DNA of 64,000 nucleotides from Deltaproteobacteria bacterium. Its GTDB lineage: Bacteria; Myxococcota; JACRCW01. This document shows positions 27,929 through 64,000 of this stretch, in pieces. A program made the translations under genes and the position numbers. The DNA lies in NCBI GenBank assembly GCA_016218805.1, contig JACRCW010000085.1:1-64000 (forward strand), read 5' to 3'. The notes beneath the pieces were generated by a model that saw only the letters and a program-made list of their open reading frames with translations, was not told the origin of the DNA and did no database searches. The number at the start of each line of letters is the position of its first letter. The first letter of the stretch is position 1.

Positions 27929-27943
27929 GTTGCCTCCCGCTTT

Positions 27944-28558: not shown

Positions 28559-28610
28559 GGATGGGCACCCTTTCCTTCAGCGTTGGTTGACGATGACTGC
28601 TGGAATGCGT

Positions 28611-28955: not shown

Positions 28956-29012
28956 CGTTGTTTACCGATACGGTACGCGCGCGGATCCGTCAAGCTCCAA
29001 TCGCGTGGGCGT

Positions 29013-30320: not shown

Positions 30321-30472
30321 CGTCGTCATCCTCCTGTCGGGCCACCCTGATTCCACCGGGAAAAGCGGTGGCGGCACGCCGCAGGTCGTTCGCGGCACGC
30401 AACGCAGGGTGCGCGTCCTTGGGGGCGCGGACAACCTCGTGACCCCACCGGGCACGGGGTCGCCGCATCGCG

Positions 30473-30919: not shown

Positions 30920-30931
30920 GGTGGTCCGCCC

Positions 30932-31573: not shown

Positions 31574-31582
31574 GAATGCTCC

Positions 31583-32197: not shown

Positions 32198-32232
32198 GAC
32201 GTGTCCTCCCGTCGTAAAGGGACCAGAAAGCT

Positions 32233-35200
32233 TCAGGCTTCAAACTTGTAGATACGGCAGGGGACTTCCTTGTGAACGGCCTGGCCGGAGTGGATTTCCG
32301 CCTTGCCCGGAAGGATCCACCCGTCGTGCGCACCCTTGCCCACGGCCAGCTTTCCCAGCGCCCAGTGCCCAAAGCCGCGGTGGAAACCCACCGTGGCAAT
32401 GCCCGGGGTCAGCGGGTCGGCGGAACTCGCCAGCTCGTTGTGGATGCCCTCCGTGCGGTGGATGCGGACGCGGATGCGGCTGACCGGCGTCTCCACCCAC
32501 GCCTGGTCGTTCTCCGCGAGTCCCAGCTTGTCCGCCAGGCGGGGGTGCACGTACAGCTTGCTCTCCGACTTCATCTCCATCAGGTACGCGTTGTTGAACG
32601 TCCGCGTGTGCGTGTGCTCCACCTCCTTCCACGAAGTGAAGAACAGCGGGTGCGTGGCCGTGGGTCCGTCTTCAACGGGCAGGTAGTACGGCAGCGGGTG
32701 GTAGCGGAGATCCCCGCTGACCGAGGCACCCGCCGGGTACTTGGTGGCGCCCGCCTTGAAATAGTCGTCAAACGTCTTGGACCAGAACTGCGCAAACAGC
32801 GTCTCCGTGCCGAAGCCGGTGAAGAAGTTTGTCCCGTCCGCGGGCGGGGAAACGTCGGTAGCGCCCGGCGGAGCAATACCGAGGTTCACGCTGGTGCCCT
32901 TGCCGCGGACCACGTAGCGCTGGTCACCGCCGTAGGTGACCGCCACCACGTCCATGACGGCGCCGCGGAAGCCGGTGCCGGCGCCGAGGCTTGCGTCCAG
33001 CGTGATGGCGGCGTTGGCCGCCGGCGTGGCTGACGCGACGGTGCCGATGAGCACGCCACCCGCGCCGGCCGTCGTACCGGTGCGGACCTCGTTGGTGGTC
33101 CCGTTCACGTACACGTGCATCCACGCCGAGCTGTATTTGTTGAGCGCTGAATAGGTGGTCGCGTACTTGTGATAGAAGGTGCCACCGCGTGACGCGCCCG
33201 TCTCAATCCACACGCCCTTCTGCTTCAGCGTGGGCCAGTCAACGTTGTTGGTGTAGCCGGCGCGGGCCGTGTCCCATTCCTTCTTGTTGAGGTTCTCGTC
33301 CACGTCACGGAAGTTGGCCGCGTCAAAACCCGTGAAGCCCATGTGACGGCCAAGGTCCAGGAAGAACTGTGCCTCGCTGCGCCCGCCAATCCATGACGGC
33401 ACAACCGGCTGCCGCAGGCCCGTGGTGAAGAAGGTGACCCAGCTGGCGTTGAAGTCAAACCGCTCCAGGTAGCTGGACCCCGGAATCAGGATGTCCGCGT
33501 ATTGCGCGGTTTCGCTGAGGTGCGTGTCAACGCAGACAATGAAGTCCATGGCCTCCAGCGCCTGGATGTTGCGCTGGGTGTTGGGCGTGGACATCAGCAG
33601 GTTCTGGAAGACAATGACGGCCGCCTTCATCGGGTAGGGGAACCCCAGGTGGTCGCGCTGTTCCAGCATGCGTTCGCGCATCTCCACGTAGATGCCGGAG
33701 CCATGCGAAAACGCGTACTTCTTGTGGAACTTGGTTCCCGCCGGGACGGTCGTGCCCGCCGTCCACGTTGTGCCGGTGGTGTCCACCAGCGTGCGGTTGG
33801 ACACCGCGGGTTCCGGCAGCGTGATGTCGTCCCGGCCGTCGGGCCGCCACCCGTCGTACTTGATGGTCCCGTTGGCGTTCTTCCAGGACGCGTGCGCGGA
33901 CAAGCGCGCGGGGCCGGAGCGGTTGGGCCGCAGCAGCGTGCCCGGGCGGTCCACGCCGCCCAACAGGAGGTTCAGACAGTTGATGGCGCGCCCGCCCTGG
34001 GTCGCGTTGGTGTGGTGGCCGCCGCCGGACCAGGTGTCAATGCAGATGCGCTTGCCGGCCGCAAACGCATCGCCCAACTCGCGTGCAAGCGCCGTGATGC
34101 GCGCCGCGGCCACACCGGTCTGTGCCTCGCCCCACGCGGCGTTCTTGGGCTGCGCGTCATACGTGCCGTCACCGTCCAGGTACTTCTTGTACTCGGTGAA
34201 GCCCACCGCCCACTGGTCCATCCAGGCCTTGTCAATCTTGGTGCCGGTGCCGGCGTCGTAGTCCACCAGTTCCTTGGCAATGGCCAGCGCGAGCGCGCCG
34301 TCCGTACCGGGCCGCAGCGGCACCCAGTCATCCGCGCGTGACGCCGTGGTGTTGAAGACCGGGTCCACATAGATGAACTTGAAGTTCCGGTCCCGGCGGC
34401 CGCGGGAGAAGATGGCCGCCAGGTGGATCCACTTCAGCGCGGACAGGAAGTTCCACCCCCACACAAACAGGACGTCGCAGTTCTCCATGTCCGCGAGCGG
34501 CCGCTCGTCGCCAATCGTCGCCTTGTAGTGCGCCTTGCGTGACGTGTCGCAGAGGTTGGCGTGGTTGGAATAGTTGGGCGACCCAAACGCGTCACAGAAG
34601 TCCTGTTGCGGGTGCGTGAAGGAGTGGTCCTCGCCAAACCAGACCACGGAGCGCGCCCCGTACTGCTGCTTGAGCGTGGTGAGGCGCCGCGAGGTCTCTT
34701 CAATGGCCTGGTCCCAGCTGATGGGAACAAACTGCCCCGAACCGCGCGGACCCACGCGCTTCATCGGCGTCTTCACGCGGTCCGGGTCATACAGCGACTT
34801 CATCCCGGAGTTGCCCTTGCAGCACAGGCGGCCCACGTCCGTGGCGGCCACCGCGGAGAACGTTCCCGTGGGCGCAGCGTCGCGGCCGGAGGCAGCAAAC
34901 CCGCCGGCCAGGCGCGTCTTGGGCGCGTCCACATTGGCCACGTTGTTCGGGTTCACGGCGTCCGTGAGCGCGTTGGGGTTGGCGGTCGTGGGCTCAATCT
35001 TCTCCACAATGCCGCCGCGCACGTACGCCCAGATACCGCACTGGCCACCGCACATGTTGCAGCATGACGGGATCCACCTGCCGCCAAGGTAGTCGTTGAG
35101 CCGTGCCGTCTCCGCGGCGGACAGGCTGCGGAAGGGGACGGGGAAGATGGTGGTCAGCGCCAACCCACCCACACCCGCGCCCGTCCACTTGAGGAAGCTC

Positions 35201-35268
35201 CGGCGGGAAAGGTCGCCCTGCCCGGCCGTCATGGTGGTGGTCTCGAGATCCTTGCGCGTGTTGCTCAT
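32233..35268 (-). CDS. Tat-exported Mo/W-bisPGD oxidoreductase catalytic subunit, Psr/Phs/Arr-like branch
   Basis: SRRSFLK Tat motif, CNMCGGQC...CCKG FS0 site, YDPDRVKTPMKRVG, PGTDGALAL, SETAQYAD and a probable Mo-ligand Cys in SNHANLCD. Confidence 0.9.
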   Translation of the reverse strand: MSNTRKDLETTTMTAGQGDLSRRSFLKWTGAGVGGLALTTIFPVPFRSLSAAETARLNDYLGGRWIPSCCNMCGGQCGIWAYVRGGIVEKIEPTTANPNALTDAVNPNNVANVDAPKTRLAGGFAASGRDAAPTGTFSAVAATDVGRLCCKGNSGMKSLYDPDRVKTPMKRVGPRGSGQFVPISWDQAIEETSRRLTTLKQQYGARSVVWFGEDHSFTHPQQDFCDAFGSPNYSNHANLCDTSRKAHYKATIGDERPLADMENCDVLFVWGWNFLSALKWIHLAAIFSRGRRDRNFKFIYVDPVFNTTASRADDWVPLRPGTDGALALAIAKELVDYDAGTGTKIDKAWMDQWAVGFTEYKKYLDGDGTYDAQPKNAAWGEAQTGVAAARITALARELGDAFAAGKRICIDTWSGGGHHTNATQGGRAINCLNLLLGGVDRPGTLLRPNRSGPARLSAHASWKNANGTIKYDGWRPDGRDDITLPEPAVSNRTLVDTTGTTWTAGTTVPAGTKFHKKYAFSHGSGIYVEMRERMLEQRDHLGFPYPMKAAVIVFQNLLMSTPNTQRNIQALEAMDFIVCVDTHLSETAQYADILIPGSSYLERFDFNASWVTFFTTGLRQPVVPSWIGGRSEAQFFLDLGRHMGFTGFDAANFRDVDENLNKKEWDTARAGYTNNVDWPTLKQKGVWIETGASRGGTFYHKYATTYSALNKYSSAWMHVYVNGTTNEVRTGTTAGAGGVLIGTVASATPAANAAITLDASLGAGTGFRGAVMDVVAVTYGGDQRYVVRGKGTSVNLGIAPPGATDVSPPADGTNFFTGFGTETLFAQFWSKTFDDYFKAGATKYPAGASVSGDLRYHPLPYYLPVEDGPTATHPLFFTSWKEVEHTHTRTFNNAYLMEMKSESKLYVHPRLADKLGLAENDQAWVETPVSRIRVRIHRTEGIHNELASSADPLTPGIATVGFHRGFGHWALGKLAVGKGAHDGWILPGKAEIHSGQAVHKEVPCRIYKFEA

Positions 35269-35289
35269 GGCTTCAGCTCCTCAAGGTCA

Positions 35290-36565
<1,276 letters not shown>

Positions 36566-49771: not shown

Positions 49772-51412
49772 TCACGAGCAGCGTTCGCCCCGCCCGTTGA
49801 TCATGCCGTAGCTCTTGAGCTTGCGGTACAGCGTGGCCGATCCGATACGGAGCTGCGCAGCGGTGCGCGTCTGATTGCCTCCATTGGCCCGCAACGCCGC
49901 GATGACGTGCTCCTTCTCGACCTCCTCGAGCGCCCGGACGGGTCCCCCGGGCTCCGATGCATGCGGCACGACCTGGCGGACCTCCTCGGGGAGGTCCATC
50001 AGTTCCACGCGGGATCCCGTGGCCAGCGCCACGGCCCGTTCCATGGCGTTCTCCAGTTCGCGCACGTTTCCGGGCCATTCATACCGCAGCAGCTGGTCCG
50101 CGGCGGCGGGCGCCAGCCCGGTGATGTGGCGCCGCGCGCGGTGCACCGCGTCCGCCAGCAGCGCGCGCGCCAACGGGAGGACGTCCTCCCGGCGCTCGCG
50201 CAGGGGCGGCACATGCAGCTCCACCACATTGAGGCGGTAATACAGGTCCTGCCGAAACGTGCCCTCCGCCACGGCGTGTGCCAGGTCCCGGTTGGTGGAC
50301 GCCAGCACCCGCACGTCCATGTGCCGGCTCTGGTTCTCGCCCACGCGGCGGACCTCGCGTTCCTGCAGGGCACGCAGCAGCTTCACCTGCATGGACAGGG
50401 AGATTTCGCCAATTTCGTCCAGCAGCAGCGTGCCGCCTCCGGCCGCCTCAAACAGCCCGGCCCGGTCATGCGTGGCGCCGGTGAATGCGCCGCGGACATG
50501 ACCGAACAACTCGCTTTCCAGCAGCGCATCCGGAATGGCCCCGCAATTCACGGCAATGAATGTCCGGCCCGCACGGATGGACCCGTCGTGCACCAAGCGC
50601 GCAATGCGCTCTTTTCCTGAGCCGCTCTCGCCGGTGATGAGGACGGTGGAATCCACGCGGGCAACCCGGCCGGCCAGTTCCACCACCCGCTGCATGGCCC
50701 GGCTGCGGGACACGGTGCCCGGCGAAGCCGCCACGGTGGGCGCCACCCGCCCCCGCGCGTGCAGTTTCTGGTCTGCCGTCTGGATCGTCTCCATGACGTG
50801 GTGCAGCGTCCCATTCAGGCTCGCTTTGAGACGGGCGGGATCCAACACGCGGAGGTCGTCTGCGTGTTCGTCACCCCACGCCGCGCGCGTGCGCCCCACC
50901 AGGCGGCAGGCGGGATCCCCGCGGCCCGCGCAACGGTCTTCCAGGACCAGCACGTCGTCACCCAACGTCCGGCTCAGGTATCCGCTGGCCAGACCGCACA
51001 GGGTCCAGCACACCGGCGCGTCCGCGCGGCCAAAGTGCAACTGGTGCTGTTCCGCCTCGTAGGACTCCATGAGCGTGACGCCGTCGCGCGCCAGCGGCCC
51101 CTCACTCCCCGCGTCAACGCGGAACAGCCCCTGCAGCGCCTGAAAGCGCGTGCACGCGCGCAGCCGCTCGTCGTCACTGTCCCACTTGAACGCGGAACCC
51201 AGCACGTCCGCCATGCGCCAGCCGTGCGCAAACCCAAACTGGGTGAGCGCCGTCCGGGCCGCCAACACACCCACGGCGTCCACCAGGAACTTCCGCAGGA
51301 TCCCCATTGCCACCGCATCCATGAGGAGCGCGCGTTGGCCCGCAAAACGGAGTGGCCCGCCCTCCGGATCCCACGCCAACAGTTCCCCATGGTCCAGGTC
51401 TTCTGCACGCAT
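49772..51412 (-). CDS. XylR/DmpR-type sigma-54 activator (XylR_N + V4R)
   Basis: [28 protein letters not shown]...[15 protein letters not shown] and TLYRKL. Confidence 0.92.
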
Positions 51413-51788
51413 CGCTTTCCCCCTCCTTCGAAACGATGCGGGAGATATGCCACGTTGATGTGGGTTTCCATCCCTCACCACCGCGCAAACCAGGCAAGTG
51501 CGCGTGAGGCAAAGGGTTCTTTTCCCGGCGCGGAAAATGCTCAGAGGCTGCGCAGATCACCAAGGGGCACGCCGCCGTTTGGCGCCGTGCCGGGGGGGGA
51601 CTCAAAACCACCGCAAACCGCTGGGTCGGTGTCCGCCGCTTGGGCGCAGGGTGTGCATCGGTTGGGATGAAGCGGGTTGCGGTGCGGATCAAACCGGCGG
51701 AAATCACGCTTTTGGAGGGGACCGCCGAGTGAATGTGCTGGTTTCCACCGTATGCGCGGAGCCGACCGCGCGCGGCGAGGGGGGGACC

Positions 51789-52007
51789 ATGGGACGCTCC
51801 AACCAATTCGCAGCGTTGTTCGTGTTTGTGTCGTTGACCACGGCGTGCGCGTGGACCACGGGTCCCGCGTCCGGCGCGCCCGCGCAGGTGACCCCGGGCA
51901 GACCGGTTCCGCCCGGGTCGGCAGGCAGCGCGTGCTCGCCGCGGCGCCTGGGCACCACGGACCCGCACGCCATGGCGCTGTGCCAGGTGCTGCGTCACCG
52001 GTACTGA
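51789..52007 (+). CDS. Possible small exported peptide (72 aa)
   Basis: GAGG RBS, hydrophobic N-terminus and two further Cys. Unverified. Confidence 0.35.
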   Translation: MGRSNQFAALFVFVSLTTACAWTTGPASGAPAQVTPGRPVPPGSAGSACSPRRLGTTDPHAMALCQVLRHRY

Positions 52008-52124
52008 GCGCAGTTCCGCGTCTTCACTGACGACAAACATCCGTTGTTGCGGGTGCACCCCGGGGGGCGCACCACGGCCGGGTCTCGTCCTGAGAACGGC
52101 CCGCAAACGTGAACGGGGGGATTC

Positions 52125-55100
52125 ATGCGATACGATCTGAACAAGCCGGGTTGTGGTCGTGCTGCATCAACCGCGGCGTTCCTTGTGGCAGTGCTTGCCG
52201 GGTCCAACGCCGCCGCGGAAATCAAGGTGACGGTGATGGACGAAACGGGAGCGCTGGTTACCAACGGCTTCCGTTGGTTGCTGGAAGAGGACAACAGCTA
52301 CGGCGCGCGGCCGGGGGTGCTGTCACCCAGTGCTCCGCTGGGAGCGGAGCCCGGTGACCCGAGCTTCACGCTGGGCGTCAACATCCACCGCAGTCACGCG
52401 CCCACCGTCTGTGCGGGTGATACCGCGCCCGCCAACGGCGTGGTCACGTTTCCTCCCACGCCCGCCGTGCTGGCGGGACCGGGAGCGGCGGTGGCCACCA
52501 TAGATACCGACAATTGCCCGGGTTATGACCCGGCCCGGAAATACATGGTTTCCGTCCTGCCCTGGCACACTTCCCCCACGGGCACGCCGACGACGGCGCA
52601 GACCGGGTACACCCAGAGCGGGCGCAACGTGGCGGCCGGACAGACCGCGGTCACCATTGTGGTGCACACCTTTGCGGTCCCCACGGCGCAAATCACCGTT
52701 ATTGTCTTTGCGGATACGCAGCCCATCAACTCCGCCTATGACCAGCCAGCGGAGCTGGGACTGCCCGGATTTGACCTCATTCTGAGTGACCCCATTGACA
52801 AGGTCATGCAGGACGCGTTTGCCAACCCGGTGGGGACCACCTACCAGTTCCGCTACACCACGCCGGACGGCCGCCCCGCGGATGCCACCGGCGCGGCAGT
52901 GCCCCAGGGAGGCCCCATCCAGTTTGTCCTGGATGAAGAGGGCGCCCCGGTGGTGGCGTGGCTGGGTGACGGCTCCCTGCGGACCTGCCCGGGCACCACC
53001 AAGCCGGTCGGGTCCTACACGGGCTATGAACGCGCCAATTGCATTGACCCCTATACGCTGCAGCCGCTGGCGGCCGGCCAGGCGGTCATCCGCTATCTCG
53101 TCGGCGGCAAGTACACCATTGAGGCGCAGCCGCCGCCGTCGGACCCGGACTGGATCCTCACAAGCACGCTGGAGGGCACGCGCGGCGTTGACACGTGGCC
53201 GCGTGCGTCCGAGCCCCGCTACATGATCACGATGGGCAACCTGAACTGGTTGACTTGGTTTGGCTTTGTGAAGCCGGTGAACAACCTGGCCAGCGTGCCC
53301 AATCCCAGCAACGCTGCGCTGAGCTCCATTTCAGGTCAATTGGTCTATGCGCACGACATGCACCCGCCTCTGTCCCCGGGCCTGACGCCCGGGCTGCCGG
53401 TGCCCTACGGCTACGTGGGCATCAACAATCTCAACGGTAACGACGAGCAGGTCTACACCGCCGCCACCGACCCGGCCACGGGCGCGTTCAGCGTGGACGG
53501 GGTGGTGCCGGGCACCTACCAGTTGGTCTTTTGGGACAAGCAGCTCAACGCAATCATTGATTTCCGGACCCTGGTGGTGGCGCCGGGGCAGAACATCGCC
53601 CTGGGGCCGGTTTCCGTGTACGGCTGGTTTGGCCGCTACATTGGCTCCGTGTTCATGGACAACAACCGCAACGGCTTCCGGGACCCATCTGATCCGGGGA
53701 TTCCCAGCGTTCCGGTCAACCTGCACTTCACGGATGGTTCCGTGTACGGCAACGGCTTCACGGATGCGGACGGGAACTTCAGCTTCCCGCAGGTGTTCCC
53801 GTTCTGGCGCTTCCTGGTGGCGGACGTGGATTTCAACCGCTTTCGCCCCACGGGGCTGACGGCGTGGGTGGACAACGGCGGGCCGTTGCCGCTCAACGCG
53901 CTGGGCGCGCAGGGCATCAACCCGCAGCACCAGCCGGACGGCCGCAGCTTCCGGACACAGCGCGGCAAGGTGGTCACGCAGGCCATGATGGCCATGCAGG
54001 ACATGACCAACCGCATTGACTGGGGAAAGACGCGCTGGAACCCCGGCGAAAACGGCGGCATTCACGGCATCATCAACTACGCCCTCACGCGCACGGAAGA
54101 GGACCCGTCCACCAGCGCGCTGGATCCCTGGGAGCCCGGCATTCCGCGGGTGACCGTGGTGCTGCACCGCGCGGTGCGGGACTGCGCGCGGGCCGGCGCC
54201 TCCGTGGAGAATGACTGCTGGGTGACGGATGACGTCCCGCCGTTCCCGCTGCTCACCACGTCCGACTCCTGGGACGACCAGACGCCGACGGGCTGCGTGG
54301 GTGCGGACGGCGACGCGAGCCAGGGACCGGTGCTGTGGGCGCTGCCGGAGATCGTCAACGGGTTTGCCATCCCGCGTTGCGCGGAGACGTTCCGCATGTG
54401 GAACCAGGTCCGCCCGGGCGTCATGGATGGCAGCTATTGGTTCCAGACCCTGCCGGACGGCAGCAGCCTGCCCGTCGGGAATTACATTGTCCAGGTGGTG
54501 CCACCGCCCGGATACGAGGTGATTCAGTGGGGTGACCGGGACATTGACATTGGTGATCCCAAAATCCCCTTCCAGACGCAGACCCCGCCGTGCGTGGGCG
54601 CCGCGTATGACATCCCGCCGTACCTGCGGATGTTCCCGGACCAGATCAATGAGACGGACCTGCCCGGGGCGTGGGATGCAAACGGAAACTGGACCTATCC
54701 GCGCGCGGCCGCGTGCGACATGAAGCTGATTGGCCTCAACCCGGGCGCCAACCCGCAGGTGGATTTCAACCTGTTCACGTGGGTGCCCAAGGCTGGCCGC
54801 ATCTGGGGCACGGTGTGGAATGACCTGCTGTTGGAGTTTGACCCGCGCAGCCCCAATGCCAGCGGGAACTTTGGCGTGCCGTGGATCCCCGTCGCGGTGA
54901 AGGACTGGTCCGGCACGGAGGTGGCGCGCTTCTACACGGACCAATGGGGCCATTTTGATGGCCTGGTGCCCACCAACTACGACATTGTTCCCCCCATGCC
55001 GCTGGGCCTGGCGCTGGCCATGTACACCATCGCCCCCAATGACCCTGGCCCCATCCGCGACCCTGACCCGACCTCGCCGACATACGGCAAGCTCATCACG

Positions 55101-57395
55101 GACCCGTGGTTCAATCCGGAATACAGCCAGGCGGTGGGGGTGGTGCGCGAAGCCAACTGGATGTTCTACTCCGGCCGCACCACGTTCATTGACACCATTG
55201 TGATGCCGGTGGCCGCCTTTGTGAGCAACCGGATGCCCATCAACTGTGACTACGCGGACAATACGCCGGAAATCCGTGAGGTCAGTGCGGCGGTCATCCC
55301 GCAGACACCAGGCGGCTACTCCATCACCATCACGGCCGTGGGCGATGTGACGGGGCCCAACCCCGCCTTTACGCCGGACAATCCCGCGGAACCGCCGGTC
55401 ATCACCTACCGCCATGATTTTGGCCCCGGTGGCACGGTGAGCGTGGGCGGCACGGTGCTCCCGCCCGCCAACGTGAGCTGGGATGTCAGCGGCATGGCCA
55501 TCACGGCGCTCATTCCCAACGGCGTGTCCGGGCAGCTGGTGGTCACGCGCGGTGACAACGGGCGTTCCTCCACGGTGGGCGTGACCCTGCACGCGGACAA
55601 TCCCTCCGTTCCCGTCATTCCGGTTGTTCCGCCGCCGGGTGGCTGCCAGGGGCTCGCCTGCAGCGTCATCCAACCGGCCATTGATGCGGCACCCAACGGC
55701 GCCATTCTGCTGCTGGGGCCCGGCCGTTACCAGGAGAACGTCAACCTCTGGAAGCCTCTCACGCTGCAGGGCCTGGGTCCCGCCATCACCGTCATTGACG
55801 GGCTGGCGGCGTGGGAGAACCAGGAACTCAAAGCCGCGCAATTCGCGCAGGCGGTGGGAATGGCGGCGTCGGGGACCATCGGACTGGTGCCCAACCAGGC
55901 GTCGGACTTCACCATGCAGCAGGGCTCCGGAATCCTGGTGGCCGGCTGTGACCCCGCGGCCTGCCCGGACGGCAATGATTTCTCGCTGTTCTCCGCGCGG
56001 ATTGACGGCGTGATGGTCACTGGCGTGCCGGACTCCGGCGGCATCCTGGTCAATGGCTACGCGCCCAACCTGGCCATCACCAACAATGACATCTTTCTCA
56101 ACCAGGGGAGCATTGGCGGTGGCATCCGCGTGGGCGAGCCCGCGCTGGTGGGCCCAGCCAACCCGACGGGCAGCAGCTTCAACCCCAACCTGCTCATTGA
56201 CCACAACCGCATCAGCATGAACGGCTCCGTGTTCAGCGGCGGCGGCGGCGTGGCCATCTACGGCGGCGCGGACAATTACGTTGTTTCCAACAACATGATC
56301 TGCGGCAACTTCTCCGCGCAGTACGGCGGCGGCATCAGCCACTTTGGCCTGAGCCACAACGGCGTCATCTCCGGCAATGTGCTCGTTTCCAACGAGTCCT
56401 TTGACGAGGGCGGCGCCATCCACCTGGGCGGCGATCTTGCGCCCGGTGCGTCTGCCATCTCACTGGGGGCGGGTTCCGTGCTGGTGAGCCGCAACCTCAT
56501 CCAGGGCAACAAGGCCGGGGATGATGGCGGCGGCATCCGCACGCGCATGTTCAACGGGCTGGACGTGGCCATGAATCCCGGCAATCCCGGCGCGTGGTTC
56601 GGACTGGATGTCATGGACAACATGGTGGTGAACAACTCCAGCGCGGACCTGGGTGGCGGCATGGCGTTGGATGACACCGTGAAGGTCACGGCCATCGGGA
56701 ACACGTTTGTGCACAATGACAGCACCGCCACCAGCTCGGACTCGTTTGGCGGCCCGTGCACGGAGGACACGCCCATGGGCCAGGTCTGTCCTCCCGGCGA
56801 AATTGCCGGCGGCCTGGTCACCTCCATTCCCGCGGTGGGCGGCATCTCCACTGCGGCGCACAGCGCACCCCTGGCGGCGGCGCTGGCCGCGCCGGGCGGT
56901 CACTGCGCCACGGTCTCAGACGCCCTGTGCGCGCCGTATTCCAACCCGCTGCTGGTGAATGACATCATCTGGCAGAACCGCTCCTTCTATTGGGACGCGG
57001 CCGCCAACAACAACCTGGGCGCGCTGTTGCCGTCGCCGGGCCGCACGTTCTGGGACCTGGCGGTGTACGGCACGGCCACGCCGCAGCAGATGAATCCCAT
57101 CTATTCGCTGCTCACGGACGGCGTCGGTGCGGCGCCGGATTCCACCAACGTGATCGGCCAGGACCCGCAGCTGACCAGCCCGTACCTGAACGTTTACGTT
57201 GCCACCTCCAAGGGCTCCACGCTGGGGAACTTTGTGGTGGCCACCTTTGGTCCCAATGGCGTGGTGGGTGACCATCACCTGCTGGCGGGATCACCGGCCA
57301 TTGGTGCGGGCAGCGGCATTCCGCCCGCCACCATGACGGACTTTGACGGACAGGACCGGGTGGCTCCAGTGGACATTGGAGCGGACCAGCACTGA
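52125..57395 (+). CDS. Very large secreted protein: SdrD-B/Cna-B-like modules, IPT/TIG-like domain and right-handed beta-helix
   Basis: Signal peptide, GSVFMDNNRNG..D..D.GI, TDADGNF, IQPAIDAA...GPGRYQEN, repeated GGG[IV] and terminal DFDGQDR...DIGAD. Confidence 0.8.
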   Translation: MRYDLNKPGCGRAASTAAFLVAVLAGSNAAAEIKVTVMDETGALVTNGFRWLLEEDNSYGARPGVLSPSAPLGAEPGDPSFTLGVNIHRSHAPTVCAGDTAPANGVVTFPPTPAVLAGPGAAVATIDTDNCPGYDPARKYMVSVLPWHTSPTGTPTTAQTGYTQSGRNVAAGQTAVTIVVHTFAVPTAQITVIVFADTQPINSAYDQPAELGLPGFDLILSDPIDKVMQDAFANPVGTTYQFRYTTPDGRPADATGAAVPQGGPIQFVLDEEGAPVVAWLGDGSLRTCPGTTKPVGSYTGYERANCIDPYTLQPLAAGQAVIRYLVGGKYTIEAQPPPSDPDWILTSTLEGTRGVDTWPRASEPRYMITMGNLNWLTWFGFVKPVNNLASVPNPSNAALSSISGQLVYAHDMHPPLSPGLTPGLPVPYGYVGINNLNGNDEQVYTAATDPATGAFSVDGVVPGTYQLVFWDKQLNAIIDFRTLVVAPGQNIALGPVSVYGWFGRYIGSVFMDNNRNGFRDPSDPGIPSVPVNLHFTDGSVYGNGFTDADGNFSFPQVFPFWRFLVADVDFNRFRPTGLTAWVDNGGPLPLNALGAQGINPQHQPDGRSFRTQRGKVVTQAMMAMQDMTNRIDWGKTRWNPGENGGIHGIINYALTRTEEDPSTSALDPWEPGIPRVTVVLHRAVRDCARAGASVENDCWVTDDVPPFPLLTTSDSWDDQTPTGCVGADGDASQGPVLWALPEIVNGFAIPRCAETFRMWNQVRPGVMDGSYWFQTLPDGSSLPVGNYIVQVVPPPGYEVIQWGDRDIDIGDPKIPFQTQTPPCVGAAYDIPPYLRMFPDQINETDLPGAWDANGNWTYPRAAACDMKLIGLNPGANPQVDFNLFTWVPKAGRIWGTVWNDLLLEFDPRSPNASGNFGVPWIPVAVKDWSGTEVARFYTDQWGHFDGLVPTNYDIVPPMPLGLALAMYTIAPNDPGPIRDPDPTSPTYGKLITDPWFNPEYSQAVGVVREANWMFYSGRTTFIDTIVMPVAAFVSNRMPINCDYADNTPEIREVSAAVIPQTPGGYSITITAVGDVTGPNPAFTPDNPAEPPVITYRHDFGPGGTVSVGGTVLPPANVSWDVSGMAITALIPNGVSGQLVVTRGDNGRSSTVGVTLHADNPSVPVIPVVPPPGGCQGLACSVIQPAIDAAPNGAILLLGPGRYQENVNLWKPLTLQGLGPAITVIDGLAAWENQELKAAQFAQAVGMAASGTIGLVPNQASDFTMQQGSGILVAGCDPAACPDGNDFSLFSARIDGVMVTGVPDSGGILVNGYAPNLAITNNDIFLNQGSIGGGIRVGEPALVGPANPTGSSFNPNLLIDHNRISMNGSVFSGGGGVAIYGGADNYVVSNNMICGNFSAQYGGGISHFGLSHNGVISGNVLVSNESFDEGGAIHLGGDLAPGASAISLGAGSVLVSRNLIQGNKAGDDGGGIRTRMFNGLDVAMNPGNPGAWFGLDVMDNMVVNNSSADLGGGMALDDTVKVTAIGNTFVHNDSTATSSDSFGGPCTEDTPMGQVCPPGEIAGGLVTSIPAVGGISTAAHSAPLAAALAAPGGHCATVSDALCAPYSNPLLVNDIIWQNRSFYWDAAANNNLGALLPSPGRTFWDLAVYGTATPQQMNPIYSLLTDGVGAAPDSTNVIGQDPQLTSPYLNVYVATSKGSTLGNFVVATFGPNGVVGDHHLLAGSPAIGAGSGIPPATMTDFDGQDRVAPVDIGADQH

Positions 57396-57453: not shown

Positions 57454-58914
57454 ATGCAGACCTCCATTCGATGGACCATGCGGTTGGCACCGGTGGTGGC
57501 GGCGTTGCTGACGCCTCCGGTGGCGCGTGCAGCCGTCTTCATCCAGTGCCCCGCGCCGCTGCTCACCCAAAACGCCACGGGCGGATCATGTGGCGCGGGG
57601 CCCTGCTACCTGGACCCCAAGAACCCCGCTGCATCCTCTGACCCGGGATGCGTGGACCCTGAGGTGGTGGACCCGGTCACGGGAAAGCCCACCTTCTTTG
57701 ACACGTGCAAGGTCCGCCTGGACCCGGTGACGGGGCAGCCCTCCGGCGAAACCACGGACCCCACCATTGTGTGCCGCTCCATCACCTGCGGCGACGGACA
57801 CGTGAACATGGCGGACGGTTCCGACATGTACGTGTTTGGATTCCGGGACGTGACCAATGCGCCGGAATCACTGCTGGCGGGCGCGGGCTTCTTCCTGGGG
57901 GAGGATGGCTCGCTCACCGGCGGGGCGGAATTTGCCGCGCCCACGTTGGTGGCCCGTGTGGGGCAGCGCCTGTACCTGACGCTGACCAACGTGGGGTTCC
58001 GTGAGCGGCCGGACCTGGGTGACCCGCACACGGTGCATTTCCATGGCTTCCCCAACGCGGCGCCCGTGTTTGACGGCGAGCCCATGTCGTCCTTTGGACT
58101 CAACATGGGCGCCAGCCTCACGTACTTCTACGACAACCAGTACGCGGGCACGTACATGTGGCACTGCCACGTGGAAGCGGCGGAGCACATGCAGATGGGA
58201 ATGCTGGGAAACCTCTACATCCTCCCCGCGCAGGACGGCCAGGCGGTGACCCACGGAGGACAGACGTACACGCGCTTTGCGTACGATGACTGCCCCACGC
58301 TGGGGACGCTCCCGCTGGGCACCCCGGACCCCATGTGCGGGACCACCGGATACGACGTCATGTACTTCCTGCAGCAGGCGTCCTTTGACCCGGTATTCCA
58401 CTACAACGACCAGACCTACCAGAAGCTGGACTTTGCCAACATGCGGGACACCTACGCCATGCTCAACGGCCGCGGGTACCCGGACACGGTCAACCCCGGC
58501 GTGATGGTCAATTCCGCGGGTGCGCCCTCCCAGCCATTGCCGGCCATTCCGTTCACGGTGGACGCCCAGGGCGTGCGCGCGCCACTGGCCATTGCCCAGG
58601 GACAGCGGTTGCTGCTGCACCTGTCCAGCCTGGCCACGGAGTCCTTCTTCACGGTGACGGTGCTGGGCATCCCCATGCGCATTGTTGGTCAAGGGGCGCA
58701 ATTGCTCCGCGGCCCCACGGGGATCAACACGTCCTATGTCACCGGCTCGGTCACGCTGTCTGGCGGCGAAGCGGTGGACGTCATCCTGGACACCACGGGC
58801 GTTCCGCCGGGCACGTATTTCCTTTACACGACCAATCTCAACCACCTGAGCAACGACGCGGAGGATTTCGGTGGAATGATGACCGAAATCGTCGTGGCGA
58901 GCGCAGCACAGTGA
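57454..58914 (+). CDS. Two-domain multicopper-oxidase-like subunit A (T1 site + HxH in domain 1)
   Basis: HTVHFHG and WHCHVEAAEHMQMGM in domain 1. No such motifs in domain 2. Confidence 0.88.
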   Translation: MQTSIRWTMRLAPVVAALLTPPVARAAVFIQCPAPLLTQNATGGSCGAGPCYLDPKNPAASSDPGCVDPEVVDPVTGKPTFFDTCKVRLDPVTGQPSGETTDPTIVCRSITCGDGHVNMADGSDMYVFGFRDVTNAPESLLAGAGFFLGEDGSLTGGAEFAAPTLVARVGQRLYLTLTNVGFRERPDLGDPHTVHFHGFPNAAPVFDGEPMSSFGLNMGASLTYFYDNQYAGTYMWHCHVEAAEHMQMGMLGNLYILPAQDGQAVTHGGQTYTRFAYDDCPTLGTLPLGTPDPMCGTTGYDVMYFLQQASFDPVFHYNDQTYQKLDFANMRDTYAMLNGRGYPDTVNPGVMVNSAGAPSQPLPAIPFTVDAQGVRAPLAIAQGQRLLLHLSSLATESFFTVTVLGIPMRIVGQGAQLLRGPTGINTSYVTGSVTLSGGEAVDVILDTTGVPPGTYFLYTTNLNHLSNDAEDFGGMMTEIVVASAAQ

Positions 58915-58926
58915 GGGGAGGGCGTC

Positions 58927-60285
58927 ATGATTCAGACCACGCAGCAGGGACGCCGGTTGTTCATCCTACTTTTGGGGGCATTGCTGGTGCTGCCCGCGGC
59001 GCCGGGGAGGGCCACGGTGCTGGGCGCCACCGGCCGCACGTTCACGCTGACCGCGCGGGCGGACACCATCAGCACGGGTGACGGCGACAGCATGTGGATG
59101 TGGGGCCTGGGGCTGGGCGGCGGGCGCATGCAGTACCCGGGTCCCACGTTGATTGTCACGGAGGGTGATTCCATCACGGTCATCCTGCGCAACCAGTTGC
59201 CGGTTCCGGTGTCACTGGTATTTCCCGGTCATTCGGTGACTGCCAGCGGGGGGACCCAGGGCATGCTCACACGCGAGGTCCCGGCGGCCCGCCCGGGCGT
59301 CCCGGGCCAGGCGGTGGTGTACCGGTTCACGGCCACGCATCCGGGAACGTTCAGCTACCACAGCGGCACGCTCCCGGACCTGGAGGTGGAGATGGGCCTG
59401 GTGGGGGCGCTGATTGTGCGGCCACGCGGTTCTCCCAACCAGGCATACAATGACCCCGCCTCCGCGTTTGACCGTGAATTCCTCTACTTGGTGACGGAAG
59501 CCGACCCGGTGCTGCACCAGCAGCTGGCGTTCAGCTGCTTGTCCGCCGCGGGTTGTGACCTGGCTTCCGTGGACCTCACGCGCCGCCATCCCACGGACTG
59601 GTTTGTGAACGGGCGGACGTTCCCCGACACGATGATGGACCCATTTGTGGCCTATCTCCCCACGCAGCCGTACAACTGCGCGCCCATGTTCCACCCCGGC
59701 GACCGCGTGTTGATACGCTGGGTGGCGGGTGGCGCGGATTTGCACCCATTCCACACGCACGGGCAGAACCACCTGGTCATTGCGCGGGATGGGCGCCTGT
59801 TGCGGACCCCCGGCAGCGCGGCGCCGGACCTGGCCGTGTCCGACTACACAACGACCAACGTGCCGGGCGAGACGGTGGACGCGTTGTGGGGACCGTGGAC
59901 GGGCGAGCGGCTGGGCTGGGACGTCTACGGCACCCAGGACATCAACCCGCACACCTGCAACGCGGCGCCCGGGAGCAACTTTGACCCCGTCAGCCGCGAG
60001 TACTGTCCGGACCATGACAAACCGCTGCCGGTGACGCTGCCCAGCCAGAGCGACGTGACCTACGGCGTGGTGGGCGTGGGGATGTGGGGCGGCACGCCGT
60101 ACCTGGGGGTCTCCGGGGACGTACCGCCCATCAATCCTGCATCCAGCACGCAGATGAACGTCGTGGGGGGGATCTCGTTCATGTGGCACTCGCACGCTGA
60201 ACGCGAGCTGACCACCAACAACATCTTCATCGGCGGCATGGCGACCATGGCGCTGATCGTGCCGGTGGGAACCGCCATCCCGTGA
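58927..60285 (+). CDS. Two-domain multicopper-oxidase-like subunit B (HxH pair in domain 2 only)
   Basis: Domain 1 degenerate (SLVFPG, YHSG). Domain 2 has HPFHTHG and WHSH. Confidence 0.86.
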   Translation: MIQTTQQGRRLFILLLGALLVLPAAPGRATVLGATGRTFTLTARADTISTGDGDSMWMWGLGLGGGRMQYPGPTLIVTEGDSITVILRNQLPVPVSLVFPGHSVTASGGTQGMLTREVPAARPGVPGQAVVYRFTATHPGTFSYHSGTLPDLEVEMGLVGALIVRPRGSPNQAYNDPASAFDREFLYLVTEADPVLHQQLAFSCLSAAGCDLASVDLTRRHPTDWFVNGRTFPDTMMDPFVAYLPTQPYNCAPMFHPGDRVLIRWVAGGADLHPFHTHGQNHLVIARDGRLLRTPGSAAPDLAVSDYTTTNVPGETVDALWGPWTGERLGWDVYGTQDINPHTCNAAPGSNFDPVSREYCPDHDKPLPVTLPSQSDVTYGVVGVGMWGGTPYLGVSGDVPPINPASSTQMNVVGGISFMWHSHAERELTTNNIFIGGMATMALIVPVGTAIP

Positions 60286-60297
60286 AGGGGGGAAGCC

Positions 60298-61833
60298 ATG
60301 TCACTCAATCACCGATTGTCGCGCTTTCATTCACGCACTTGGGTTGGTTGCCTCACCTGCCTGGGCCTGGTGGCCTGCGGCAACCCGGAGTCCCGGGCGC
60401 CTGCTGCGGCGGGCACCCCGGAACGCGGGCCGGCGGCGGCGGCGGCTCCATCGCTGGACGCACCGGTGCTGCCCACCGTGGAGGTCTACCTGCGCGCCGA
60501 GGCGTTCGACCTCCCGGCCATGGCGTTCAACAATCCCGCGCCCATCCGCATGTGGGGTTTTGCGGAATGCAAGGAGGCGTTCACGTCCTGCGGGCAGCCC
60601 ACGGTGCCGGGCCCCGCGCTGGGCGTGGAGGAGGGCGGCACCCTGACCATCCACGTCATCAACGGCCTTGCCGGGCCGTACGTGGAGCCGGTCTCCGTGG
60701 TCATCCCCGGCCAGGCGGCCACCATGAATCCAGTCTGGTTTGATCCCGTTACCGGGTCGGTGACGGCCACGGGCGCCCGTCCGGCGGGGGACTACACGTC
60801 GCGGGTCCGCTCGTTCACGGCGGAGACGCCGCCGGATGGCGCCACGGTGACGTCCTACTCGTGGACCGGATTGCGGGCCGGCACCTACCTCTACCAGTCC
60901 GGGAGCCACCCCGCCGTGCAGATGCAGATGGGCCTGTTCGGCGCGTTGCTGGTGTATCCGGTCAACAGCGCGCTGGCGTACCCGGATCCATCCACGGCTT
61001 TTGATGCTGAGGTTACGCTGCTCTTCAGCGAAATCGACCCCGTCCTCCACGACGCCATTGCCGCCGGGCTGTACGGTTCGCAGCCTCCCTCGCCACCGCC
61101 CGCTGGGTGGCTCACCAGCACCATTGAGTACCGCCCGCAGTACTTCTTCATCAACGGGCAGTCCTTCCGTCCGGCCATGCCCGTGCTGCCTGCGGGCGTG
61201 CGTGGCGGGCGCCTGTTGATCCGCTTCTTGAATGCGGGCCTTTCCAACCGGGTGCCTGCGGTGCAGGGTCCGTACATGTCCGTGATTGCGGAGGATGGGC
61301 ACCCGTACATGGTGACGTCCTCCACCGGCTCGGTGTTGCCGGCGCCGCGCGAGCAGTACTCCGTGCTGCTCCCCGCGGGAAAGACCGTGGACGCCATCCT
61401 GGTGCCGGCGGCCGCGGGCGATATCCCCGTTTACGACCGGCGCTTTGGTCTCTCCAACGCGGGGACGTCTCCGGGCGGGATGCTGGTTTACCTGGCGGTT
61501 GCCGGTACGGCTCCCTCCCAGCAGCCGCTGCGCCTGTCCACCACGCGCCTGGTCTTCAACACGGCCGGACTGCGGGCGGTGACGGTGCGGAATACCGGCA
61601 TTTCCGCGCGCGTGATCACGGGGGCGGAAATTGTGGGCGGGGGGGCCAACCCGGCACCGGATGCGTTCTCCGTGTCCAACACGGCTCCGGTCACCCTGGC
61701 AGGGGGTTCATCCGCCACCTTCCTGGTGTCCTTCAACCCCACCACCACCAACCCCACGGCGCTGCTGAACTTCAGCACCAATGACCCCCTCACCCCATTG
61801 CTGACGGTCCGGTTGGTCGGCATCCGCCGTTGA
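60298..61833 (+). CDS. Multicopper-oxidase-like lipoprotein subunit C (no canonical Cu ligands) with C-terminal Ig-like domain
   Basis: Lipobox LVAC, PGP.L.V.EG, SVVIPGQ, GTYLYQSG...MGLFGAL, FING and RFLNAG. Confidence 0.8.
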   Translation: MSLNHRLSRFHSRTWVGCLTCLGLVACGNPESRAPAAAGTPERGPAAAAAPSLDAPVLPTVEVYLRAEAFDLPAMAFNNPAPIRMWGFAECKEAFTSCGQPTVPGPALGVEEGGTLTIHVINGLAGPYVEPVSVVIPGQAATMNPVWFDPVTGSVTATGARPAGDYTSRVRSFTAETPPDGATVTSYSWTGLRAGTYLYQSGSHPAVQMQMGLFGALLVYPVNSALAYPDPSTAFDAEVTLLFSEIDPVLHDAIAAGLYGSQPPSPPPAGWLTSTIEYRPQYFFINGQSFRPAMPVLPAGVRGGRLLIRFLNAGLSNRVPAVQGPYMSVIAEDGHPYMVTSSTGSVLPAPREQYSVLLPAGKTVDAILVPAAAGDIPVYDRRFGLSNAGTSPGGMLVYLAVAGTAPSQQPLRLSTTRLVFNTAGLRAVTVRNTGISARVITGAEIVGGGANPAPDAFSVSNTAPVTLAGGSSATFLVSFNPTTTNPTALLNFSTNDPLTPLLTVRLVGIRR

Positions 61834-61852: not shown

Positions 61853-62314
61853 ATGAGCGCGGGACGCAACAGCAGCGTGTGGTGGGTGGCCTGGTGCGCG
61901 GCCGGCGTGCTGCTCGGCCAGCAGGTTGCAGCGGCGGAACGTGCGGTCCGGGCCCCGGAGGCCCGAGCCACTCGCGCCGTCAGCGAAACCTGGGGAATTG
62001 AACCGGTGGCGGTCCGCACCTCCGGCGGAGGGCGCATGGTGGATTTTCGCTACCGCGTGGTGGACGCGCAGAAAGCCCGTCAGTTGTTTGACCGCAAGCT
62101 GAAACCGGTCCTGCGGGACCACCGGAGCCGCGCGCAGCTGGCCATGCCGGAGGACACCAAGCTTGGCGGCCTGCGTTCCAGCCCGCGCGCACAGCCGGAG
62201 AACGGCAAGGTCTATTACGTGCTGTTCGCCAACCCCAACAAGACCATTGCCCGGGGCGCCAAGGTTGACGTCGTCATGGGTGACTGCGTGCTGGCCAACC
62301 TGGTGGTGCAATAG
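61853..62314 (+). CDS. Exported hypothetical protein
   Basis: GGAGG RBS, signal peptide, and position within the operon. Confidence 0.7.
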   Translation: MSAGRNSSVWWVAWCAAGVLLGQQVAAAERAVRAPEARATRAVSETWGIEPVAVRTSGGGRMVDFRYRVVDAQKARQLFDRKLKPVLRDHRSRAQLAMPEDTKLGGLRSSPRAQPENGKVYYVLFANPNKTIARGAKVDVVMGDCVLANLVVQ

Positions 62315-62324
62315 CGGGGAAATC

Positions 62325-63641
62325 ATGCACCACCTCCGCCGCGGTCCAGGTCTGGCCGCCCTCGCCCTTCTTGGCTGCGGGATGCCGGACCCCGCCCGGG
62401 AAGCCGCGGAAATGCGGGTGGTCATCCGGATGGCGGACCAGGCCGTGCCACCGGGACCGGAGCCCGGTCACGCGGCGGCCGCCCTCAGGAGCCAGGCGGA
62501 GGTCACGCAGGCTGGATTGCGGGCCTTCCTGCGTGCGCACGGCGGCCGGCGGCTGACGCCCCTGCCCATCATCAACGGTGTGTCCGCGTTCATTCCGCAC
62601 GGCCTGCTGCCCGCAGTGTCCCGGTTTCCGGGTGTTGACCGGGTGGTGGCGGACCCCGGCTGGCGGTTCCCCGCCGCCACCCCGGCGGGGACGGGATCGC
62701 CGGGATGGAATCTGCAGTCGGTGCACGCGGACGCGCTGTGGGCGCGCGGCTTCCGCGGCCAGGGCGTGGTGGCGGCCAACATGGATACCGGCGTGGACGT
62801 GCGCCACGTGGACGTGGCGGACCGCTGGCGCGGCGGTGACAACAGCTGGTTTGACCCGTTCACGGACAGCGTTGAGCCGTATGACCCCATTGGTCACGGC
62901 ACACAGACCCTGGGCATCATGCTGGGCGGCAGCGGTTTCGGGGTCGCGCCGGGCGCGCAATGGATTGCGGCAAGGATCTATGATGATTCCGGGCATTCTT
63001 CATTGACGGTGGTTCACCAGGCGTTCTTCTGGCTGCTGGACCCGGACGGCGATCCCGCGACGCCGGACGCTCCGCGGGTGGTCAACGCTTCGTGGGCCAT
63101 TGGTGATTCCGTAGGTTGCGACCTGGAGTTCATGCCGGACGTCCAGCGGCTCACCTCCGCGGGGATCCTGGTGGTGTTTCCCGCGGGCAATGCGGGGCCA
63201 CGGGAAGGCTCGGGGGGGAGCCCGGCTGACAATCCCGGCTCTTTCGCCGTCGCGGCCGTGGATCGCGACGGACGCGTGGCGTCGTTCAGCAGTCGCGGCC
63301 CGTCGGCCTGCCATGACGGCGTCTTTCCGCATGTAGCCGCTCCGGGCATGGACATTGTCACGCTGGATGTCTCGCTTCCCGGGATTCCGCAGTACGCGGT
63401 GGTTGCCGGGAGTTCATTTGCGGCGCCGCATGTGGCGGGCGCCGCCGCGCTGTTGCTGTCCGCGTTTCCCTCCCTTTCTCCCGCCCAGCTCCGCTGGGCC
63501 CTGACTGCGGGCGCGCGGGATGGGGACGCCCCCGGGCCTGACGCGCGTGTCGGGCACGGGATTCTTGACGTTGCCGCTTCCCACGTTGCGCTGCAGCGCG
63601 CTGTGGCTCGCGGCTACTTGCTGCACCCACCCACCGACTGA
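62325..63641 (+). CDS. S8 subtilisin-family serine protease (lipoprotein)
   Basis: Lipobox LLGC, MDTG, GHGT, AGN and GSSFAAPHVAG. Confidence 0.92.
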   Translation: MHHLRRGPGLAALALLGCGMPDPAREAAEMRVVIRMADQAVPPGPEPGHAAAALRSQAEVTQAGLRAFLRAHGGRRLTPLPIINGVSAFIPHGLLPAVSRFPGVDRVVADPGWRFPAATPAGTGSPGWNLQSVHADALWARGFRGQGVVAANMDTGVDVRHVDVADRWRGGDNSWFDPFTDSVEPYDPIGHGTQTLGIMLGGSGFGVAPGAQWIAARIYDDSGHSSLTVVHQAFFWLLDPDGDPATPDAPRVVNASWAIGDSVGCDLEFMPDVQRLTSAGILVVFPAGNAGPREGSGGSPADNPGSFAVAAVDRDGRVASFSSRGPSACHDGVFPHVAAPGMDIVTLDVSLPGIPQYAVVAGSSFAAPHVAGAAALLLSAFPSLSPAQLRWALTAGARDGDAPGPDARVGHGILDVAASHVALQRAVARGYLLHPPTD

Positions 63642-63652
63642 CCGGAGGCACC

Positions 63653-64000
63653 ATGCACCCCGTCCGCTTCTCCACGTTTGCCGTTGTGCTTGCCCTGCTT
63701 GCGTTGCCGGCGTCCGCAGCGGAGGGTGCCCCGCCGTCGGAGCACTGCCCGCACCACGCGGCACCTGCGGCCGCCACGCCCTACGCCCGCTCCCTTCACA
63801 GCTACAGGCCGCCGGACGTGACCCTGGTGGACCAGGACGGCCGCCGCGTGCCGCTTTCGGCCGCGCTGCGCACGGACGTTCCGGTGGCGGTGAACTTCAT
63901 CTTCACCACGTGCACCACGGTGTGCCCGGTGATGAGCGCCACGTTCGCCGGCGTGCGGCGCCGGCTGGGCGCGGACGGCGAACGGCTGCAAATGGTCTCT
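63653..64000 (+). CDS. SCO family copper chaperone (3'-truncated)
   Basis: GGAGG RBS, signal peptide, LVDQDGR and NFIFTTCTTVCP (CxxxC). Read directly from the + strand. Confidence 0.88.
   Translation, partial: MHPVRFSTFAVVLALLALPASAAEGAPPSEHCPHHAAPAAATPYARSLHSYRPPDVTLVDQDGRRVPLSAALRTDVPVAVNFIFTTCTTVCPVMSATFAGVRRRLGADGERLQMVS

Follow-up and report, generated by a model that had tools for sequence, protein, structure and literature searches.

The locus described here raises the question of how a copper enzyme might be built from proteins none of which carries a complete set of copper ligands. It lies in a 64-kb stretch of DNA, referred to below as the window (positions 1 to 64,000 of contig JACRCW010000085.1, GenBank assembly GCA_016218805.1, from a Deltaproteobacteria bacterium of the Myxococcota), where a row of genes on the + strand between 52.1 and 64 kb includes three adjacent genes for two-domain cupredoxin proteins, designated A, B and C. 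The original prediction for this stretch, made from its sequence, was that copper ligands are divided between domain 1 of A and domain 2 of B with none in C, that no chain is active alone, and that the three proteins form a membrane-tethered A:B:C heterotrimer. From the analysis presented below, we consider it about 70% probable that A, B and C assemble into a single heteromeric multicopper oxidase that evolved from a type C two-domain oxidase.

The copper ligands of A and B are complementary. A matched three Pfam families above their gathering scores (PF07732, Cu-oxidase_3; PF07731, Cu-oxidase_2; PF00394, Cu-oxidase) and, among solved structures, comes closest to 3gdc (E 1.2e-9) and 3g5w (E 3.9e-8), both type C two-domain oxidases. 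It contains two HxH motifs in total, in HTVHFHG and HCHVEAAEHMQMGM, both in domain 1, with none in domain 2. Residues H192, C238, H245 and M250 make up a type 1 (T1) copper site, the only one in the three proteins, and all four cluster histidines of A (H195, H197, H237 and H239) come from domain 1. B, which matched PF07732 and PF07731 above gathering scores, also has two HxH motifs in total, in HPFHTHG and HSH, and these both lie in domain 2, where they provide the four cluster histidines H276, H278, H421 and H423; Ser422 occupies the position of the T1 cysteine. Domain 1 of B is degenerate, with FPGH/FPGQ and YHSG in place of ligand motifs. B also has a specific conserved pair, D362-H363. No HxH is present in C, every copper ligand having been lost. 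Thus no chain carries four HxH motifs (A has two, B two and C none) and, with the ligand halves split between A and B, neither chain alone could build a trinuclear cluster, which gives computational support to the claim that no chain is active by itself.

C is nevertheless recognisable as a cupredoxin. Its single Pfam match above the gathering score is PF07732 (E 1.2e-5), and its AlphaFold2 model (mean pLDDT 83.8) has 2zwn and 3g5w as top fold matches, with TM scores by target of 0.70-0.73. An Ig-like tail had been ascribed to C, and a C-terminal beta-sandwich is indeed modelled at residues 417-508, but its match to the choice-of-anchor D model (33.4 bits) stays below the cut-off of 45. The lipobox reported for C is likewise present in the window (LVAC, Cys27) but is not conserved; of 72 C orthologs, only 5 have a lipobox-like string, so the membrane tether is lineage-specific and not a property of the family. 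B and C are clear paralogs, with 31% identity over 304 residues (E 9e-24), and A is a more distant, collinear relative (E 9e-4 to B and 3e-6 to C). A DPxxH motif is found in the linker of all three proteins, at H316 in A, H197 in B and H251 in C, and is conserved in 81/81 A, 76/80 B and 71/73 C sequences; it marks their common origin. Four actinobacterial proteins of about 900-990 residues, some named Micromonospora (P0130-P0132 and P0134), combine an N-terminal part resembling B and C (33% identity) with PF19077, and may on this similarity be stand-alone relatives of the copper-free subunit.

To follow the three genes across genomes, one genome per species was surveyed; relatives of A were found in 423 stretches, and the best 80 were kept as loci. 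These span Nitrospirota, Gallionellaceae and other Burkholderiales, Methylococcales, Geobacteraceae, Desulfobacterota, Myxococcota, Planctomycetota, Acidobacteriota and Hydrogenedentes. A recurrent gene order was seen across them, comprising a large protein (BIG), A, B, C and a small protein (SM). B directly follows A in 80/80 loci, including one (L023) in which it is a 116-residue stub at the contig end, and does so in 10 further loci, eight from a divergent clade and two of the main type; one more locus ends inside A. C is present in all 74 loci with room for it (72 identified by script, and L039 and L062 by direct comparison), and in the remaining six the contig ends within or just after B. 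The concern that homologs of A might commonly occur without B was not borne out, B following A in every locus whose contig is long enough. Distribution in the phylum of the window is uneven: of 40 relatives, only one (G021) gave a strong full-length match. The window genome has a single copy.

The ligands themselves are close to invariant. In A, each of H192, H195, H197, H237, C238, H239, H245 and M250 is found in 81/81 sequences, as are E241 and E244. Of the B residues, H273, H276 and H278 each occur in 79/80 sequences, and H421, S422 and H423 each in 72/80, the rest being mostly gaps from truncated contigs, with a different residue at H421 or H423 in one or two rows. A has 160 positions, and B 137, at which conservation reaches 85% or more. 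No conserved HxH was found in domain 2 of A, domain 1 of B or C across the aligned orthologs. Copper nitrite reductase was also considered and rejected, since A and B score 20.9 and 43 bits, respectively, against TIGR02376, whose cut-off is 296.3; the eight conserved histidines point to a trinuclear cluster rather than the three-histidine type 2 (T2) site of that enzyme.

A second sample gave the same picture at greater distance. Among 151 genomes from the family of one Gallionellaceae locus, A was found at E <= 1e-30 in 12, three belonging to the main type and nine to a divergent one whose A proteins are 38-42% identical; eight divergent loci were retrieved. Without exception, the ligand motifs of these eight loci are HTVHFH and HCHITPPEHLQMGM in A and HPFH[FE]H and HSH in B, with no paired motifs in the C part. 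Each comprises A, B, a fusion of C to BIG (2476-2880 residues), SM and a cytochrome, with SCO1 in 6/8 and the S8 protease in 0/8. The divergent B proteins (L102-L109) also share an additional H[IM]H 19 residues upstream of HPFH[FE]H (8/8), which the main type does not have. The predicted partition (A domain 1, B domain 2, none in C) holds in the window and in every complete ortholog of the 80 and 8 loci, and the co-occurrence of B with A extends to all testable loci. The feature itself is real, widespread and under strong selection.

The partition was then examined in the A family as a whole, using a library clustered at 50% identity, in which 181 proteins matched A at E <= 1e-30 and the best 150 were inspected. 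Full-length representatives, defined by both domain-1 motifs and at least 200 residues beyond them, accounted for 94 of the 150; another 26, mostly short fragments, had at least one motif missing. Among the 94, no HxH followed the T1 motif in 76, one in 16 and two in 2, both of the latter with non-canonical spacing. A canonical domain-2 ligand set was thus found in 0/94, indicating that the A family at large is without the domain-2 half of the cluster. Of the same 94, 23 exceed 900 residues and have the A-like part at their C-terminal end.

Gene fusions link some of the components. In-frame fusions join BIG to the N-terminus of A in 13/80 loci and to the C-terminus of C in 2/80 loci and 8/8 divergent loci, which ties A, C and BIG into one assembly. 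A, B and C themselves remain three separate cupredoxin units, with no merger among them in 88/88 loci.

A structural model was made of A (residues 105-486) with B (residues 29-452), each with its own unpaired alignment of 74 rows. The pair gave an ipSAE of 0.91 (0.90, 0.91 and 0.91 in three runs) compared with 0.06 for the best of three controls; contacts agreed between runs at 96% or more, and the partner pLDDT was at least 89. This score level is reached by 116/157 solved complexes and 2/215 mismatched pairs, a calibration that is only roughly valid here given the unpaired alignments. On the A side the modelled interface consists of residues 191-247, including H197 and the neighbours of H237-C238-H239, together with loops of domain 2 that include a conserved GGGE at 434-439. 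On the B side it is formed by domain 2 and the linker only, with H276, H278, H423 and a B-specific insertion at approximately 367-391, and domain 1 of B makes no contacts with A in the model. Two neighbour arrangements are possible, and the one adopted in the model would unite both sets of histidines.

These observations can be accommodated by the following mechanism. The three genes would have arisen by triplication of a type C two-domain oxidase gene followed by complementary loss of ligands. Domain 2 of B would pack on domain 1 of A so that the eight histidines form one T2/type 3 (T3) trinuclear cluster at the interface; electrons would enter at the T1 site of A and reach the cluster by way of the H237-C238-H239 triad, O2 being reduced there to water. 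A six-domain ring could be closed by C, in the order A, C, B, leaving two interfaces copper-free, and BIG would be attached to the A/B/C core as a surface- or substrate-binding module. All subunits are predicted to be exported unfolded via Sec, with copper loaded outside the cytoplasm with the help of SCO1, and the S8 protease may mature one component. Sec export is favoured because twin-arginine motifs are not conserved (similar strings are present in 10/79 B orthologs and 3/72 C orthologs and absent from the A of the window), and the presence of SCO1 in the cluster would be consistent with the export of unfolded subunits. Oxidases of the CueO type are exported by the twin-arginine translocation (Tat) pathway, and for the same motif data a Tat-exported periplasmic oxidase of that type was rejected. 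As electron donors we tentatively suggest Fe(II), Mn(II) or reduced mineral surfaces, with the MofC-like cytochrome c encoded nearby as a possible relay. The fullest form of the proposal, an obligate heterotrimer, with BIG attached, that has the first natural trinuclear cluster made by two gene products, is a living analogue of a triplicated but unfused stage postulated on the way from two-domain to six-domain oxidases, and acts at the cell surface on solid or complexed Fe(II)/Mn(II) in groundwater and sediment bacteria of many phyla, is unlikely to hold in every part.

Several points weigh against a heteromeric oxidase. The case for it is computational, from sequences and models. The anticipated meeting of A domain 1 with B domain 2 is reproduced in that the ligand loops oppose each other in the model, but only 4/8 cluster histidines (H197, H276, H278 and H423) are in the list of interface contacts. 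Because homotrimeric two-domain oxidases have been solved, the high A+B score may be inflated and may partly mirror those known structures. The placing of C in a ring would rest on synteny, paralogy with B, an intact fold and the BIG fusions, and C has the fewest positions conserved at 85% or more (73). H273 of B, a vestigial T1 histidine, is retained almost as strictly as the cluster ligands beside it, which the heteromer model does not explain. Fusions of A to B, B to C or all three were not found among 15 longer relatives of B, although this is weak evidence; these proteins consist of B or C with unrelated extra domains. Lineages usually held to be strict anaerobes are among the carriers (Thermodesulfovibrio, Desulfatibacillum, Syntrophobacterales and Geobacteraceae), a poor fit with an O2-reducing enzyme. 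Finally, the relationship to the Sideroxydans cluster described below was judged by matching architecture and not by sequence.

The alternative that survives best accepts the complex as a genuine oxidase, not a metal-oxidising one, which would instead scavenge O2 outside the cytoplasm with electrons from the MofC-like cytochrome c encoded in the cluster or act on organic or nitrogen substrates. A monoheme cytochrome c gene lies beside SCO1 in 30/80 loci, with a cytochrome in 8/8 divergent loci, and the cluster is present in anaerobes and microaerophiles. The XylR_N domain of a regulator in the window is of a type typical of aromatic sensing, and a related two-domain oxidase is described as acting on hydroxylamine (PMC11761707). 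Set against this, the cytochrome was not found in the sequence examined for 50/80 loci, an XylR_N-type regulator resembling that of the window is present in only 9/80, and the BIG and choice-of-anchor modules point to the cell surface; the only expression data, reported for a cluster of like architecture, link it to growth on solid Fe(II) (PMC12016527). On balance we regard a non-metal substrate as somewhat doubtful.

A further possibility is that A and B share the cluster in a core of A:B, A:B:B or A2B2 composition, with C acting as a scaffold devoid of copper, by which this core is attached to BIG or the cell surface. C is the least conserved subunit, its open reading frame ranging from 329 to 1097 codons across loci with long, variable C-terminal extensions, and in the divergent clade it is merged into the giant BIG protein. 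Domain 2 of B also contacts several domain-2 loops of A in the model, making a compact A:B unit conceivable. However, C keeps a complete two-domain oxidase fold, is the closest paralog of B and occurs in 74/74 testable loci, solved two-domain oxidases are described as trimers (PMC13151041), and an A:B pair would leave domain 2 of A and domain 1 of B without ring neighbours. These points make the scaffold arrangement quite improbable. That the three proteins act separately, A as a blue-copper carrier, B as an unrelated copper-binding protein and C as an adhesin-like protein with no shared cluster, would suit the separate gene and signal peptide of each, but is very hard to reconcile with leftover ligands staying invariant in 81/81 A and 79/80 B sequences from many phyla, and also in a clade with identities of only 38-42%, or with the A+B model far above its controls, the strict adjacency and the BIG fusions.

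The three genes belong to a larger gene neighbourhood, whose features are collected in Table 1. The original prediction correctly singled out A, B and C and overlooked the larger conserved unit that also includes BIG, the small protein, the S8 protease, SCO1 and cytochrome c.

Table 1. Features of the locus and of the rest of the window (window positions unless a contig position is stated)
Feature	Position	Strand	Remarks
AAA_21 (AbiEii-like) ATPase and N6/N4 DNA methylase	115-2666		
Arsenic block	23915-36402	-	
Collagen triple-helix repeat/cytochrome c7 protein	35290-36402		
Sigma-54 activator, XylR_N sensor domain	49772..51481	-	Pfam match; divergent from BIG
Putative small open reading frame	51788-52007	+	just 5' of BIG
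BIG	52125..57395	+	1756 aa, secreted; Pfam and NCBIfam matches
A, two-domain cupredoxin	57454..58914	+	486 aa; sole T1 site
A motif HTVHFHG	58027..58047	+	residues 192-198
A motif HCHVEAAEHMQMGM	58162..58203	+	residues 237-250; Cys-His path from T1 to cluster
A DPxxH motif, H316	58399-58401		
B, two-domain cupredoxin	58927..60285	+	452 aa; no T1 Cys
B DPxxH motif, H197	59515-59517		
B motif HPFHTHG	59743..59763	+	residues 273-279
B motif HSH	60187..60195	+	residues 421-423, within WHSH 420-423
C, ligand-free two-domain cupredoxin	60298..61833	+	511 aa; paralog of B
C DPxxH motif, H251	61048-61050		
SM	61853..62314	+	153 aa; N-terminal helix and small beta-sandwich
S8 subtilase	62325..63641	+	lipobox-like N-terminus (LLGC); Peptidase_S8 E 3.8e-43
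SCO1/SenC copper chaperone	63653..64000	+	ends at contig position 64273
MofC-like protein	contig 64104-65852 (L081:605-2353)		582 aa; past the window, directly after SCO1

BIG is made up of SdrD_B and carboxypeptidase-regulatory-like beta-sandwiches, a parallel beta-helix at approximately 1180-1540 and a choice-of-anchor Q tail, and has 356 positions conserved at 85% or more in 63 sequences. Its sole match among solved structures is the SdrD B-domain (E 0.0011), and a cytochrome function was ruled out by the absence of CxxCH. The adhesin-like and beta-helix modules, with the choice-of-anchor domains, suggest a cell-surface location, and BIG is likely to be a fourth subunit or a substrate- or surface-binding module. 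A match to BIG of at least 300 bits was found upstream of A in 69/80 loci. Of the 11 others, six have A less than 1.2 kb from the contig start, one has BIG in pieces and four are without it; these four (L039, L054, L071 and L074) have A, B and, contig permitting, C, with no recognisable BIG in the upstream sequence examined, where BIG may be encoded elsewhere in the genome or be dispensable. The small open reading frame just 5' of BIG begins MGRSNQFAALFVFVSLTTAC and is lipoprotein-signal-like.

Of the downstream genes, SM is found in 66/80 loci, S8 in 45/80 and SCO1 in 31/80. SCO1 and the cytochrome are adjacent wherever both are found, and the pair is sometimes upstream and divergent. SM had no Pfam or NCBIfam match and no match in the PDB at E <= 0.001 (model pLDDT 86), and its neighbours in the Atlas are hypothetical-protein clusters throughout. 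Conserved His, Cys or Met residues are absent among its orthologs, and a copper-chaperone role was rejected on these grounds; SM is presumably an accessory or assembly factor. The S8 subtilase is a probable maturation protease. The MofC-like protein has an N-terminal cytochrome c domain (CxxCH) followed by a long C-terminal domain.

Upstream, the XylR_N sigma-54 activator could regulate the cluster, though the link is weak. No sigma-54 promoter with two mismatches or fewer was found between the regulator and BIG (51482-52124), and the whole window has fewer such matches (55) than shuffled sequence (mean 111). Elsewhere in the window, the arsenic block encodes an ArsR-type regulator, ArsD, ArsA, an SBF/Acr3-type carrier, an ArsC-like low-molecular-weight phosphatase and a methyltransferase; adjoining it is an Arr/Arx-like set of a 1011-residue molybdopterin oxidoreductase, 4Fe-4S subunit and NarJ-like chaperone, together with a protein in which a cytochrome c7 domain accompanies collagen triple-helix repeats. 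The stretch is contained in four DNA sequencing runs from one groundwater study, one of which is perhaps its source, and no RNA run is listed.

If A, B and C do form one oxidase, an O2-reducing cluster formed only between two different subunits would represent a new assembly principle. Duplication followed by loss of redundant sites, the route from two-domain to six-domain oxidases, would be shown to be feasible without gene fusion, and a natural six-domain assembly having just one T1 site and one cluster would be handy for spectroscopy. At present A and B are both annotated as 'multicopper oxidase domain-containing protein'. Expressed alone, either would probably give an inactive protein that could be misread as lacking function. 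The family is common: the 423 matches and 181 clusters at 50% identity noted above include genomes of iron-oxidisers, Nitrospirota, Geobacteraceae and Myxococcota from groundwater and sediments. Since a cluster of like architecture is reported to be induced on magnetite (PMC12016527), the family may bear on the bacterial oxidation of mineral-bound metals.

Among known systems, the type C two-domain oxidases of Nitrosomonas europaea (3G5W), Arthrobacter (3GDC) and a metagenome laccase (2ZWN) likewise have two cupredoxin domains. Their trinuclear site is described as lying between two chains (PMC11761707); adjacent chains contribute to it, one with domain 1 and the next with domain 2, as proposed here. 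In A, too, the T1 site belongs to domain 1, and the HxxHxH and HCH-x5-H-x4-M motifs are spaced as in 3gdc. Type C chains, however, form homotrimers in which each contains all twelve ligands, with cluster histidines from both its domains, giving three T1 sites and three clusters, whereas domain 2 of A and domain 1 of B are without HxH and one T1 site and one cluster would be split over A and B. In a homotrimer of A, every cluster would be short of half its ligands. The 'heterotrimer' mentioned in PMC11761707 was set aside as a precedent, being described as one protein with or without a proteolysed extra domain and not as distinct gene products.

The proposed ring resembles the six-domain oxidases, ceruloplasmin and the MnxG of Bacillus Mnx, in having six domains and one cluster. 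Ceruloplasmin has six cupredoxin domains with one trinuclear cluster, its other interfaces being copper-free. It keeps three T1 sites where one is present here, and gave a weak sequence match to domain 1 of A (E 0.0049). Six-domain oxidases are single polypeptides; here three genes are involved. By its sequence the cluster would be neither a canonical two-domain oxidase, with all ligands in one chain, nor a six-domain oxidase made as a single polypeptide. The likeness to the latter is probably convergent or analogous and need not imply descent, and with no A-B, B-C or A-B-C fusion found, the intermediate between the two classes that had been envisaged is better read as an independent bacterial analogue than as an ancestor. 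To our knowledge, in the established multicopper oxidase architectures one type of polypeptide carries all the cluster ligands. Among the papers listed in a search of the literature, none reports, by title or abstract, a trinuclear cluster shared out over different gene products.

The gene cluster as such has been noticed before. In Sideroxydans lithotrophicus ES-1, 'three tandem MCO-coding genes' are described alongside one mofC-like and one copper chaperone gene (PMC5566968, He et al. 2017). The three cupredoxin proteins of this cluster, Slit_1812-1818, were all reported as detected and raised on magnetite, two of them having oxidase motifs and the third, much larger, being without these and having adhesin- and polysaccharide-lyase-like domains (PMC12016527, Keffer et al. 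2025). The cluster continues with small hypothetical proteins, SCO1/SenC and a cytochrome (PMC5566968, PMC12016527), which as described is the divergent-clade order of A, B, C-BIG fusion, SM, SCO1 and cytochrome; the window differs in having BIG as a separate gene and an S8 protease. In their passages on this cluster, both papers treat three separate uncharacterised cupredoxins or oxidases and mention neither complementary motifs nor a heteromer (PMC5566968, PMC12016527). The description of the system as uncharacterised therefore holds for its mechanism, as far as those passages go, but not for the gene cluster.

Other multi-subunit oxidases differ in where the ligands reside. The iodide oxidase IoxA/IoxC is described as multi-subunit and, as here, its iox cluster has SCO1-family genes, but it was rejected as a close analogue, as IoxA alone is reported to carry all four copper-binding regions (PMC9415286). 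Mnx (MnxE3F3G) and fungal laccases with small subunits (PMC10443355) are multi-subunit too; in them as well, one subunit has all four copper-binding regions, its partners adding no cluster ligands. The OmpB and MofA clusters of Geobacter and Leptothrix have accessory genes in common with the present locus, namely SCO1 and a MofC-like cytochrome c with a binding-protein-like domain (PMC5566968), and a cell-surface location is predicted both for them and for the present system. OmpB and MofA are described as single large oxidases (PMC5566968), whereas the oxidase proposed here would be split among A, B and C.

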